This document shows positions 24,001 through 27,000 of a stretch of DNA of 29,493 bases, one piece after another; the stretch's first letter is position 1; each line of letters opens with the position of its first letter. Origin of the DNA: a virus (Duplodnaviria; Heunggongvirae; Uroviricota; Caudoviricetes). The DNA lies in the IMG/VR virus record IMGVR_UViG_2537561932_000024, positions 1 through 29,493 of that record; one strand, 5' to 3'. The position numbers are program-made.

Positions 24001-27000
24001 GCGTCAAGTTCTGCTACATCACGTTGACGCTTCTGCATGTCAGCGATTGTGGATGTGGCTTTATCTCGCTGCTCTTTGTAGGCGATGGCGTTATCACGGT
24101 AATGATTAACAGACCATAACAGGCAGACGATGATGCAGATAACCAGAGCGGAGATAATCGCAGTGACTCTGCTCATACCTCAATCTCTCTGACCGTTCCG
24201 CCCGCTTCTTTGAATTTTGCAATCAAACTGTCAACCTTATGCTCGAACTGACCGTAACCAGCACCCGGCAGTGAAGCCCAGATATTGCTGCAACGGTCGA
24301 TTGCCTGACGGATATCACCGCGATCAATCATCGGTAAAGCGCCACGCTCTTTAATCTGCTGCAATGCCACAGCGTCCTGACTTTTGGGGGAGAAATCTTT
24401 CAGGCCAAGCTGCTTACGATAGGAATCCCACCAACGGGAAAGAAGCTGGTAGCGCCCGGCTGCTGTTGATTTGAGTTTTGGGTTTAGCGTGACCAGTTTG
24501 CGAGGGTGATCGGAGTAATCAGTGAATAGCTCTCCGCCAACAATGACGTCATAACCATGATTTCTGGTTTTCTGTCGTCCGTTATCAGTTCCCTCTGACC
24601 ACGCCAGCATATCGAGGAACGCCTTACGTTGATTATTGATTTCCACCATCTTCTACTCCGGCTTTTTTAGCAGCGAAGCGTTTGATAAGCGAACCAATCG
24701 AGTCAGTACCGATGTAGCCGATGAACACGCTCGTTATATAAGCGAGATTGCTACTTAATCCGGCGAAGTCGAGAAGGTCACGAATGAACCAGGCGATAAT
24801 GGCGCACATCGTTGCGTCGATTACTGTTTTTGTAAACGCACCGCCATTATACCTGCCGCGAAGGTACGCCATTGCAAACGCAAGGATTGCCCCGATGCCT
24901 TGTTCCTTTGCCGCGAGAATGGCGGCTAACAGGTCATGTTTTTCTGGCATCTTCATGTCTTACCCCCAATAAGGGGATTTGCTCTATTTAATTAGGAATA
25001 AGGTCGATTACTGATAGAACAAATCCAGGCTACTGTGTTTAGTAATCAGATTTGTTCGTGACCGATATGCACGGGCAAAACGGCATGAGGTTGTTAGCGC
25101 AACCTCCTGCCACCCGCTTTCACGAAGGTCATGTGTAGAAGGCCGCAGCGTAACTATCACTGATGAATTCAGGATAGTCAGTGGCTACGGCCCAGTTATG
25201 GTGCTGGTTAACGGACTTGAACCGCTACCCATTCGCTTACAAGGCGACTGCTCTACCATTGGAGCTAAACCAGCATATTTGGCGGGACAGCGTGGACTCG
25301 AACCACGATAAGAAGGTTAACAGCCTTCCGTAATGACCTTTATACGACTGACCCAAATAAAAAAGCCACCGTTGCAACTTAAGAGTCACTAACGGCAGCT
25401 TACCCTCTAATTATGGCTAAATGGCTAATTGCATGTCAAGGTTTTTAACAGCAACATGCTTAACTTTCTCAACACATTTACGCATTTTGAAAGCATTTTG
25501 CATTGGTTGGTACAAAACAAATAATGACGCTTTCAGGATGTCGTCAATTTCGTTTCTACAGGTTGCCAGTGAAGGTTTTCTCCATCCCTCGCCACCACGT
25601 CCACACATCTTGCGTGGCTTTGCAGTCGCGTGATAGTAGGATGCAATTGCTCGCTTAGATGAACCATGAGCGTAGTAGCTGAGGAGGATGCCAAAGGCTT
25701 TTTTGTCAATGTACATGACGGAATCGACGACCTGAGAAATCAACATTCCATCATCATCATTGCACATTGGCCTTGTCATAACTCTTCCCGGCTCTACGCT
25801 CTCCATGAACTTCGCTATTACGCTGCTCATGCGCTTTTCCAAGCGACCTGAATAAACCCATGCGCCCCACAGTTCAAGCCAGCCATTCAGCCAATCGTGC
25901 TGTTCTTTGGTGAGGTTTAGTTCTCTTATGCCCACGCGCCTTCTCCCTGTACCTGAATCAATGTGAGGTTTCCGCAGAACACTGCGCCGGTATCGATATA
26001 CATCTGGTTGGCAAACTTGAGTGGTTTCACTGCTGGCGTATGACCAAAGATGAACGTGTCCGCTCCTTTGATTTCTTTCACGATCCCGTCTTGTGAGTTG
26101 CTGATTCGTTCGCGGTTCCAGATTACCTGCTGATGATCAACTGGCTTTCCAAACTCGTATTCGTCACAAGGATAATCGGCGTGGCAGATGACATATTTTT
26201 TACCTTTGCTCACCAGTTCAATGATTAACGGAAGTTCATCTGCTTTATGGGCAAGAGCTTTAGCCAGAATTTCTTTGTCGTAATCGAGATTAAAGAACCA
26301 GCCACCGCCATTAAGCAGCCAGTGATTGACGTTTCCACGCTCTGATAAGCCATCAATCATCATTTGCTCATGGTTTCCACGTACAGCTCTGAACCAGGGG
26401 AATGTGATTAATTCCAGACATTCGACGTTCTCTGTACCGCGATCAACCAAATCGCCCACCGAGATAAGCAGGTCTTTTTTGGTGTCGAATCCTATCGTCT
26501 CCAGTTTTTTCATCAGGTTCGTGTAGCATCCGTGCAGGTCGCCAGCTACCCAAATATTTCGGTATTTGCTGCCATCAATTTTTTCGTAATAGCGCATCTC
26601 TTTCACTCCATCCGCGATGAACCATGAGAACGTCGTTGACGATGGCGTGCATTTTCCCGTCTTTATCATCAACGTATTTTCTGACCGTACCGCGACTACA
26701 TTTCAGTCTGCGTGCTACTTCTGTCTGGTTTCCGTATGCTTCAACGAGCATGTCTGGAATGGTTTTTACTGAGAACGTCATGCGGCCTCACTTCTGCTAT
26801 TTCGCAGGTCTTTGAGTTTCTGCTGATACTCCGCCTTGATGGCCCTGCCCTCTTCGACAGTCCAGCGATGGCGGTTATGGTTTGATTCGATTTCGTCTAC
26901 TGCTTCCTGCCCGATGCGATTAATCAGTTCGACGCGATACGGAACGAGATTTCCGCTTTTGTGCTGGTTGCACACCACGCATTGCTTGTGAATATTGCGT

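Follow-up and report, generated by a model that had tools for sequence, protein, structure and literature searches.

The window, meaning the whole 29,493-nt stretch of DNA analysed here, contains exactly two tRNA genes according to ARAGORN, both on the minus strand: a tRNA-Asn (anticodon GTT/GUU) at 25280-25354 and, following it, a tRNA-Thr (anticodon TGT/UGU) at 25199-25274, with a 5-nt A/U-rich spacer, AAUAU, read from the sequence between them (25275-25279, minus strand). Rfam assigned both to RF00005 across the full model (positions 1-71 of 71), at 55.3 bits for tRNA-Asn (E 2e-9) and 61.5 bits for tRNA-Thr (E 3e-11), exceeding the gathering score of 29 bits by 26-32 bits. A preliminary description of this DNA had proposed a Thr-UGU and an Asn-GUU gene on the minus strand at 25199-25354, between Q/pR' and the holin gene S; ARAGORN and Rfam agree on both genes and their coordinates, the feature layout places them in that interval, and neither gene went uncalled or was scored as a pseudogene. 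The 3' CCA is encoded in both, and both cloverleaves are reproduced by the minimum-energy fold of the leader. The identity elements of AsnRS are G34, U35 and U36 together with G73, and those of ThrRS are G1-C72, C2-G71, G35 and U36; all of them can be read in tRNA-Asn, where G73 is the discriminator base, and in tRNA-Thr, respectively. The Rfam alignment also locates a U4·U69 mismatch in the acceptor stem of tRNA-Asn, corresponding to the T:T mismatch noticed earlier, a U13·U22 mismatch in its D stem, and a G27·A43 mismatch in tRNA-Thr. The Asn-GUU and Thr-UGU genes are confirmed as genuine tRNA genes of a P22/Sf6-like E. coli prophage.

All the flanking features considered here also lie on the minus strand. 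Upstream, a Q-type late antiterminator gene of the phage 21 Q family occupies 25417-25935 (Pfam Phage_antitermQ, E 1e-25); the window Q is 85% identical to phage 21 Q, with the differences concentrated in the C-terminal third. The late promoter pR' (25410-25439) overlaps the 3' end of the Q gene, scored 11 of 12 in a promoter scan, being the sole minus-strand site of such quality in the region, and aligns with the pR', Q-binding element (QBE) and -10 of phage 21. Its -35 TTGACA lies at 25439-25434 and its -10 CATAAT at 25415-25410, while the tandem 8-mers AATTAGCC/ATTTAGCC at 25430-25415 form a putative QBE, a near-identical version of which, AATTATCC/AtTTAgCC, appears in the phage L paper.

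The late leader (25355-25403), with a transcript start predicted near 25403 from folding and phage 21 homology, includes the equivalent of the sigma-dependent pause element (SDPE; 25402-25396, by alignment with the phage 21 SDPE) and the intrinsic terminator tR' (25401-25355), composed of a hairpin at 25401-25363 and a U-tract at 25364-25355. A simple terminator scan missed tR' owing to a bulge and a long stem, and RNA folding and homology were used instead: the hairpin folds at -20.2 kcal/mol (z -4.12; none of 200 shuffles folds as well), is followed by UUUUUUAUUU, and in 75 of 80 related loci shows 0-1 mismatches. From TSS +1 through both tRNAs (209 nt aligned), the window shares 99% identity with phage 21, and the curated phage 21 record (citing PMID 1704887) annotates the TSS, the SDPE and a terminator that ends one base before tRNA-Asn. 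The equivalent element is labelled tR' in the Sf6 and HK75 records. In the window, likewise, tR' sits between pR' and the first base of tRNA-Asn and ends one base before that gene, which starts at 25354.

Downstream of the tRNAs lies a highly structured untranslated spacer (24957-25198; fold z -7.1; 96-97% identical to lambda 44945-45192), containing a terminator-like hairpin with a weak U-tract (25111-25082) and a stem-loop immediately before the dual start of S. Searched permissively against Rfam, the leader and the spacer matched no family besides the two tRNAs, the ~240-nt spacer having no match. Considered as the true tR', the hairpin at 25111-25082 was rejected, its tail being only GUUUUG and the same sequence lying well past the tR' of phage lambda in that genome too. 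The first late-operon gene past the cassette is the lambda-family holin gene S, with a dual start (24633-24956; Pfam Phage_holin_3_1, E 2e-30), to which PGAP gives the name 'phage holin, lambda family' in one E. coli genome whose copy of the cassette is 100% identical.

This cassette is not new: published genome papers have discussed it, and annotations of it exist for phage 21 (OL657228), Sf6 (AF547987), BTP1 and SfI. The same pair is also present in HK446 and mEp506, and 369 of 5426 complete E. coli genomes contain it; phage 21, Sf6 and HK446 carry both tRNAs with sequences identical to those of the window. As a discovery it therefore carries little weight, having been annotated since the Sf6 record and being called by the NCBI pipeline in hundreds of E. 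coli genomes; what is added here is a corrected order, with the tRNAs after tR', and a sharper counter-defence hypothesis. It is dispensable, being absent from about half of the phages whose Q is at least 97% identical. It also moves between Q types: the HK446 copy stands behind a Q/pR'/tR' of lambda type, joined to it within the T-tract, which fits a self-contained accessory module.

Covariation was assessed among 25 distinct relatives of tRNA-Asn and 23 of tRNA-Thr. Paired cells amounted to 92.4% for tRNA-Asn, with 15 of 21 pairs altered on both sides and a covariation score of 0.59, compared with 0.16 for shuffles and no more than 0.17 when partners were slid; the corresponding values for tRNA-Thr were 93.6%, 13 of 21 pairs, and 0.33 compared with 0.125 and no more than 0.11. 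Because the search patterns set the columns of the D arm and the anticodon loop, invariance there is uninformative. Among the relatives, G73 is retained in 24 of 25 tRNA-Asn sequences, while pair 1:72 of tRNA-Thr is invariant in 22 of 23 and pair 2:71 in all 23. A chance origin of both cloverleaves is excluded, and both tRNAs are real and under selection. As a candidate pseudogene, tRNA-Asn was rejected on its Rfam score and covariation.

These data bear on the earlier suspicion that the Asn tRNA is partly degenerate and, more broadly, on the reading in which tRNA-Asn or both tRNAs are nonfunctional relics of mosaic recombination. The mismatches in the two molecules would suit such decay, as would the dispensability of the cassette and the existence of true wrecks among the relatives, such as an Asn/Gly hybrid at 32.6 bits. 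Decay is nevertheless highly improbable, given the excess of both Rfam scores over the threshold, an anticodon-arm sequence that most copies keep unchanged (67 of 80 for Asn, 131 of 153 for Thr), and the activity in vivo of the identical tRNA-Thr of HK446. Moreover, the U·U mismatch is retained in relatives of tRNA-Asn while the adjoining pairs 5:68, 6:67 and 7:66 have changed compensatorily, and on this comparison of sequences U4·U69 reads as a conserved lineage trait and not as decay. The position of tR' decides a further question. The preliminary description had located the tRNAs between pR' and tR', as part of a constitutive pR' leader continuously made in the lysogen and changing host translation. 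Promoters of the pR' type are indeed constitutively active, stable tRNAs could accumulate from a few per cent of read-through at tR', and the hairpin at 25111-25082, past the tRNAs, could have been mistaken for tR'. Against this stand the GUUUUG tail of that hairpin, shared with lambda downstream of the lambda tR', and a strong terminator, homologous to the tR' annotated in phage 21, Sf6 and HK75, that precedes tRNA-Asn and separates the promoter from both tRNAs. Since it does so, constitutive transcription in a lysogen should not reach the tRNAs, leak-through aside, and production in the lysogen must be considered unlikely; in lysogens, pR' is reported to be constitutively active but terminated at tR' (PMC7547250).

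Lying downstream of tR', the tRNAs should therefore need Q antitermination, and the arrangement suggests the following course of expression. In a lysogen, RNA polymerase starting from pR' near 25403 would halt at tR', giving only a ~48-nt leader, whereas during lytic growth Q would load on the polymerase paused at pR' and carry it past tR', so that the tRNAs would be made as the opening part of the late mRNA, a Q dependence derived from close homologs and the literature. Judging from the same sources, host enzymes would then excise the tRNAs, with RNase P acting at the 5' ends and an endonuclease cut plus exonuclease trimming at the A/U-rich spacers, among which 25275-25279 is likely an endonuclease processing site; the encoded CCA ends would make CCA addition unnecessary. 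The promoter scan found no promoter-like site between tR' and the tRNAs or within the cassette, and hence no private tRNA promoter. The tRNAs should thus be a product of the lytic phase and not of the lysogen. The phage L paper leaves open whether tRNAs of this kind are excised from late mRNA or have their own promoter, and the cassette offers a direct way to settle this question. Once mature, the tRNAs would supply Thr(UGU) and Asn(GUU) decoding during late protein synthesis, with a likely two-part benefit: a match to phage codon use and the replacement of host tRNAs lost to TOPRIM-type abortive-infection tRNases.

With regard to codon use, 29.5% of the late-gene Thr codons are ACA, vs 13.5% in 39 host genes (p 3e-9), and ACA is 2.1-fold enriched per thousand codons (p 1e-7), an over-representation by which the tRNAs would match phage codon use. 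Asn codons are 1.3-fold more frequent in late than in host genes (53.0 vs 41.2 per thousand codons, p 4e-4), with no difference in the AAC/AAU ratio between the two sets. The coat gene uses AAC for 22 of its 24 Asn codons and ACA for only 3 of its 40 Thr codons. In the comparison of anticodons with rare late-gene codons, suggested by the preliminary description, AGG, AGA and AUA proved far more enriched than ACA (11-fold, 5-fold and 3-fold, respectively) and are unserved by the cassette tRNAs. The codon fit is imperfect, and this was also counted against the best explanation. E. coli has a single Thr(UGU) gene, thrU, and several Asn tRNA gene copies; thrU was also seen here as the host Thr(UGU) gene. 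The same codon-supply argument is made in the phage L paper, where AAC takes up 24 of 25 in the coat gene.

The second proposed benefit concerns nucleases that cleave host tRNAs with the anticodons found in the cassette. OLD, AriB and HepS all attack Thr(UGU), and AriB attacks Asn(GUU) as well, so that both cassette tRNAs share their anticodon with tRNase-targeted host tRNAs. P2 OLD cleaves host Thr(UGU) after nt 27-29 (bioRxiv 10.64898/2026.07.10.737580), whereas the PARIS nuclease AriB cuts the host tRNAs for Lys(UUU), Thr(UGU) and Asn(GUU) at U36-A-A-U39-C40|N41, U39 being essential (PMC12409363). Compared with the host molecules, both cassette tRNAs are substituted at nuclease recognition or cleavage positions: positions 36-41 read UAAGCG in phage Thr vs UAAUCA in the host and UAACCU in phage Asn vs UAAUCC, while positions 27-31 read GUCGC in phage Thr vs ACUGA in host thrU (5 of 5 differing) and GAAGG in phage Asn vs GCGGA in host asnT (3 of 5 differing). 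Resistance to P2 OLD or PARIS AriB would accordingly stem from anticodon stems that differ from the host's at positions the nucleases need. The tRNA-Thr of the window has the same sequence as that of HK446, which restored plating of HK97, HK542 and Bas34 on P2 OLD cells in a preprint (bioRxiv 10.64898/2026.07.10.737580). In the same work, none of the viral tRNA-Thr variants tested, HK446's included, rescued lambda from OLD, resistance to cleavage as such was demonstrated with the Bas32 tRNA and not with HK446's, and the authors suggested that the HK446 tRNA may represent adaptation to a temperate way of life (bioRxiv 10.64898/2026.07.10.737580). By analogy with these systems, the Thr(UGU)+Asn(GUU) pair likely replaces host tRNAs cleaved by OLD and AriB; the experiments bear on tRNA-Thr only, through its HK446 counterpart, and on OLD only, and the cassette comprises no resistant Lys(UUU), the main AriB target. 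If this holds, temperate lambdoid phages carry a minimal Q-timed anti-tRNase kit, beyond a codon-usage patch.

Whether codon supply would suffice by itself depends on the same observations. According to that reading, which corresponds to the usual assumption for phage tRNAs, the two tRNAs only boost decoding of ACA and AAC/AAU in abundant late proteins and any nuclease resistance is incidental; the enrichment of ACA and Asn codons, the AAC bias of the coat gene, the single host thrU and the parallel argument for phage L all speak for it. It leaves the most over-represented rare codons unserved, however, it has to contend with the several host Asn tRNA copies and the scarcity of ACA in the coat gene, and supply alone fails to explain why the loops are identical to the host's and the anticodon stems are not, differing at every position from 27 to 31 in tRNA-Thr and at three of these five in tRNA-Asn, so that we regard it as a tentative possibility, somewhat short of even. 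A different role is suggested by the slot between tR' and the conserved sequence upstream of S, a slot which in phages with a Q at least 97% identical is filled by interchangeable structured RNAs: the tRNA cassette, a long hairpin of lambda type that carries variable inserts, or a hammerhead type I motif (~14 viral contigs). The cassette might then serve mainly as punctuation, supplying RNase P and RNase E cuts that free the leader from the lysis and structural mRNA, with decoding secondary. This is improbable, as anticodons, identity elements and cloverleaf are conserved far past the needs of a cleavage signal, the same two anticodons are found again in other contexts, and the candidate hammerhead, at 24.7 bits against an Rfam gathering score of 34, is a lead only; the literature, when searched for hammerheads in the late leaders of lambdoid phages, yielded nothing specific. 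We are equally doubtful of the more general proposal that the post-tR' site is a swap slot for cut RNA modules (tRNAs, cleaved by RNase P and further host RNases, a self-cleaving motif of hammerhead type, or a long lambda-type hairpin) whose shared job is severing the antitermination leader from the late mRNA. Were it true, cutting would fix the 5' end of the holin message, its stability or its translation, and tRNAs in the slot would bring decoding and anti-nuclease benefits in addition. The explanation that we favour, and as a whole consider probable, is that the Asn and Thr genes are two functional tRNAs forming a small mobile cassette of ~160 nt, expressed late under Q timing and conferring a codon and counter-defence benefit.

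Among known systems, the closest is the phage 21 pair, found also in Sf6, SfI, BTP1, HK446 and mEp506: the same two genes, Asn(GUU) then Thr(UGU), stand in the same order right after tR' and ahead of the lysis genes, abutting the T-tract of tR' in phage 21, Sf6 and HK446 as in the window. The QBE and -10 region have diverged (AATTAGCC/ATTTAGCC in the window vs ATTGAGCA/AATGAGCA in phage 21), and the gene downstream is a lambda-type S holin in the window vs a pinholin in phage 21.

The ileZ-argN-argO cluster of Stx phages, to whose location the preliminary description had likened that of the cassette, resembles it in general position, after Q/pR'/tR' and before the late genes, and its expression is therefore also Q-dependent. 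In the Stx2 phage WGPS6 the order is Q, a tR' homolog, three tRNAs (Ile-type (CAU), Arg(UCG) and Arg(UCU)) and stx2. Beyond position the likeness ends: the Stx cluster supplies Ile, Arg and Arg tRNAs for the rare codons AUA, AGA and AGG, whereas the window has GUU and UGU anticodons, its late genes being rich in AUA, AGA and AGG yet without Stx-type tRNAs, and the Stx tRNAs begin ~230 nt past the tR' homolog with stx next, whereas those of the window abut tR'.

Lambda 6S RNA and StxS derive from the same kind of promoter-terminator unit, of which the ~48-nt leader of the window would be the counterpart; the cassette tRNAs, in contrast, are outside the leader, beginning after its terminator. 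Lambda 6S measures 194 nt. The StxS precursor is 258 nt long (PMC7547250), and the window leader is much shorter than either. Lastly, the nuclease-resistant tRNAs with which T5-like and T4-like phages neutralise PARIS (AriB) and OLD are comparable in that the anticodons match the targeted host Thr-UGU and Asn-GUU tRNAs, with substitutions at AriB positions 39 and 41 and across the OLD region at nt 27-29. Those systems are large arrays in virulent phages, whereas the window holds a two-gene cassette, without Lys(UUU), in a temperate phage and probably under Q control.

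ARAGORN, run over the whole window, called exactly two tRNA genes, both on the minus strand: tRNA-Thr(UGU) at 25199-25274 and tRNA-Asn(GUU) at 25280-25354. Both match the full Rfam tRNA model (61.5 and 55.3 bits, respectively; gathering score 29), so that the pair reported in a preliminary description is called by both methods with the same position and strand. CCA is encoded in both genes, and the whole leader folds into a hairpin followed by two cloverleaves. The T:T mismatch noted earlier in the tRNA-Asn acceptor stem is present as U4·U69; this tRNA also carries U13·U22, and tRNA-Thr a G27·A43 mismatch.

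The window is a P22/Sf6-like prophage encoding an integrase, an O-antigen-type acyltransferase, a tailspike with a P22 head-binding domain, virion genes, an antirepressor beside a sar RNA, a lambda-type lysis cassette, Q, and nin genes. Late genes are carried on the minus strand, where a phage 21-family Q gene (85% identity to Q21) lies upstream of the tRNAs, and holin S, endolysin and Rz lie downstream. Between tRNA-Thr and S, 240 nt of untranslated sequence (24957-25198, minus strand) form a strongly structured spacer (z -7.1) with 96-97% identity to the region preceding lambda S and no match among Rfam families. It includes a terminator-like hairpin (25111-25082) whose internal mismatch is G·A in the window and U·C in Sf6. 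Elsewhere, the sar antisense RNA (5969-6035, plus strand; Rfam 65 bits) adjoins the antirepressor gene (5089-5967, minus strand; Bro-N and P22_AR_C domains), the two forming a P22-type immI region. The tyrosine integrase (1-1158, plus strand) and an Acyl_transf_3 protein (1492-2388, plus strand) resemble Sf6 int-oac in their arrangement, and the prophage may be serotype-converting. The nin region contains an HNH_3 endonuclease ORF (28669-29208, minus strand), followed by the C-terminal 61 aa of an IS21 IstB protein (29224-29409, minus strand); an insertion sequence appears to abut the window end.

The promoter scan placed a near-consensus pR' (TTGACA, 18 nt, CATAAT) at 25439-25410 on the minus strand, overlapping the 3' end of Q. 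Between its hexamers sit the tandem 8-mers AATTAGCC and ATTTAGCC, near-identical to repeats considered the probable Q-binding element in phage L (PMC8022706). A stable hairpin follows at 25401-25363 (minus strand; -20.2 kcal/mol, z -4.1, none of 200 shuffles as stable), with UUUUUUAUUU directly 3' of it, and tRNA-Asn begins at the very next base. The same hairpin is annotated as tR' in Sf6 and HK75, and the curated phage 21 record gives the order -35, Q-binding element, -10, transcript start, sigma-dependent pause element, terminator (citing PMID 1704887), tRNA-Asn and tRNA-Thr. Starting one base past the transcript start, the window matches phage 21 at 99% identity to the end of the second tRNA; upstream of this stretch, the Q-binding element and -10 region have diverged. 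Since a homologous terminator stands between pR' and tRNA-Asn, the tRNAs are located downstream of tR', and not between pR' and tR' as previously proposed.

This order also argues against the proposal that the tRNAs are transcribed constitutively in a lysogen. In Stx phages, pR' is constitutively active and its transcripts are stopped at tR' in lysogens, and lambda, 21, 82, phi80 and P22 all produce such short pR' RNAs (PMC7547250); the scan detected no further promoter-like site on the minus strand between pR' and S. By likeness to lambda 6S and StxS, the constitutive product is expected to be the leader of ~48 nt (25355-25403, minus strand), most of which is the terminator hairpin. The tRNAs would appear only once antitermination, by Q or by an upstream N-type complex, takes polymerase past tR'.

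Viral contigs were searched for relatives of both tRNAs by patterns built around the D-arm and the anticodon loop. Among 25 distinct tRNA-Asn relatives, 92.4% of cells were paired and two-sided changes occurred at 15 of 21 pairs, with a covariation score of 0.59 against 0.16 for shuffles and at most 0.17 for slid partners; for tRNA-Thr (23 distinct relatives), the values were 93.6%, 13 of 21, and 0.33 against 0.125 and at most 0.11. Known AsnRS and ThrRS identity elements are present in the window tRNAs and conserved in relatives. U4·U69 is retained across the lambdoid and Klebsiella-phage lineage despite compensatory switches at 5:68, 6:67 and 7:66, and standard pairing at 4:69 is confined to distant relatives within large tRNA arrays. 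The mismatch is therefore a tolerated or selected trait of the lineage, and the suggestion of a partly degenerate tRNA-Asn is not supported.

The slot was surveyed in 80 viral contigs with Q at least 97% identical: 26 carried the Asn+Thr cassette, nine had Asn with a different partner or an Asn/Gly hybrid wreck, and ~40 contained no tRNA. Cassette edges are sharp, one lying within the tR' T-tract and the other a few bases past the tRNA-Thr CCA. HK75 shares Q, pR', tR' and holin but has an unrelated 216-nt filler, and HK446 carries the identical cassette directly after a lambda-type Q/pR'/tR'. The cassette is mobile and its slot polymorphic.

Other variants of the locus were also observed. In some phages sharing Q and tR', a complete hammerhead type I core (CUGACGAG...GAAAC...GUC), nested in a lambda-type long hairpin, replaces the cassette (L082:2104-2150 and ~14 other lambdoid viral contigs, e.g. 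L253, L257-L259, L261, L264, L265); its Rfam score (24.7 bits, E 0.0014) is below the gathering score of 34, and stem I covariation is seen for the same core pattern in unrelated phage contigs. Between the pR' -10 element and tR', an insert of ~700 bp (L008:2027-2733 and ~15 similar loci) carries a terminator-like hairpin of its own and an HNH-motif ORF of 170 aa that resembles a homing endonuclease; the insert would part promoter from terminator. A hybrid pseudo-tRNA in contigs L009, L015, L016 and L055 (about 2083-2157 each) fuses, at the T-arm, the 5' portion of tRNA-Asn with the tRNA-Gly(UCC) 3' end (Rfam 32.6 bits; no ARAGORN call); it probably originated when an Asn-Thr-Gly cassette underwent a deletion between its T-arm repeats. 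Asn-Thr-Gly(UCC) cassettes also contain a second tRNA-Thr(UGU) allele (L085:1720-1795, JLK-2012; L011 and L013 at 2861-2933), combining a phage-type 5' half with a host thrU-like anticodon arm, including the host-like AriB site UAAUCA, and T-arm. The second tRNA of ST64T (L086:1225-1305) and phage L (L212:667-738), annotated as tRNA-Leu(UAA), has a tRNA-Thr-type acceptor stem and a rearranged anticodon arm and is not called by ARAGORN; its decoding identity looks doubtful.

Codon supply explains the pair only partly. Comparing 17 late genes with 39 host genes, ACA makes up 29.5% versus 13.5% of Thr codons (p 3e-9) and Asn codons are 1.3-fold commoner (p 4e-4), AAC accounting for 22 of 24 Asn codons in the coat gene. 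The fit is incomplete because AGG, AGA and AUA are far more enriched than ACA and no cassette tRNA reads them.

Counter-defence against tRNA-cleaving nucleases may be a second benefit, with recent experimental backing. P2 OLD, a TOPRIM tRNase, cuts after nt 27-29 in several host tRNAs, among them Thr(UGU) and Gly(UCC). On cells carrying OLD, expressing HK446 tRNA-Thr(UGU) allowed HK97, HK542 and Bas34 to plate again (bioRxiv 10.64898/2026.07.10.737580); the window's tRNA-Thr is identical to that of HK446. That preprint credits HK446 with a single tRNA; its genome also has a tRNA-Asn (L278:714-788), and neither is annotated in its GenBank record. AriB (PARIS) targets host Lys(UUU), Thr(UGU) and, less efficiently, Asn(GUU), cleaving U36-A-A-U39-C40-N41 between C40 and N41; cleavage is lost when U39 is changed to A, and T5 Lys, Thr and Asn tRNAs rescue when combined (PMC12409363). 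Positions 36-41 read UAAGCG in window Thr versus UAAUCA in host thrU, and UAACCU in window Asn versus UAAUCC in host asnT; anticodon loops are the same as the host's, while anticodon-stem pairs differ at five of five positions in Thr and three of five in Asn. Gifsy-1 HepS also hits Thr isoacceptors (PMC13043305). As a complete answer, counter-defence is opposed by the cassette's lack of a resistant Lys(UUU) and by the failure of tested viral tRNA-Thr variants, including that of HK446, to rescue lambda (bioRxiv 10.64898/2026.07.10.737580). The experimental support concerns tRNA-Thr; a counter-defence role for tRNA-Asn is putative.

The tRNA pair is an already known element: both tRNAs are annotated in the Sf6 record AF547987 as 'similar to phage 21', two tRNA genes are reported for phage 21 (PMC9119081), P22-like prophages with Asn GTT and Thr TGT tRNAs appear in the epsilon34 paper (PMC2629481), and the phage L paper devotes a section to late-operon tRNA genes, citing Sf6 (PMC8022706). 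The segment containing the cassette matches 181 phage records, and 369 of 5426 complete E. coli genomes contain the cassette itself, with both genes annotated by PGAP. The identity and general location first described stand, but the pR'/tR' placement, constitutivity in the lysogen and partial degeneracy are not supported; the analysis is most useful for correcting the transcriptional logic and for connecting this anticodon pair, in a testable way, with TOPRIM-type tRNA-cleaving defences. The analogy drawn with Stx phages holds for position: an Stx2 phage whose Q is related has, in order, Q, a tR' homolog, ~230 nt, ileZ-argN-argO and stx2. There as in the window, however, the tRNAs lie behind the terminator.
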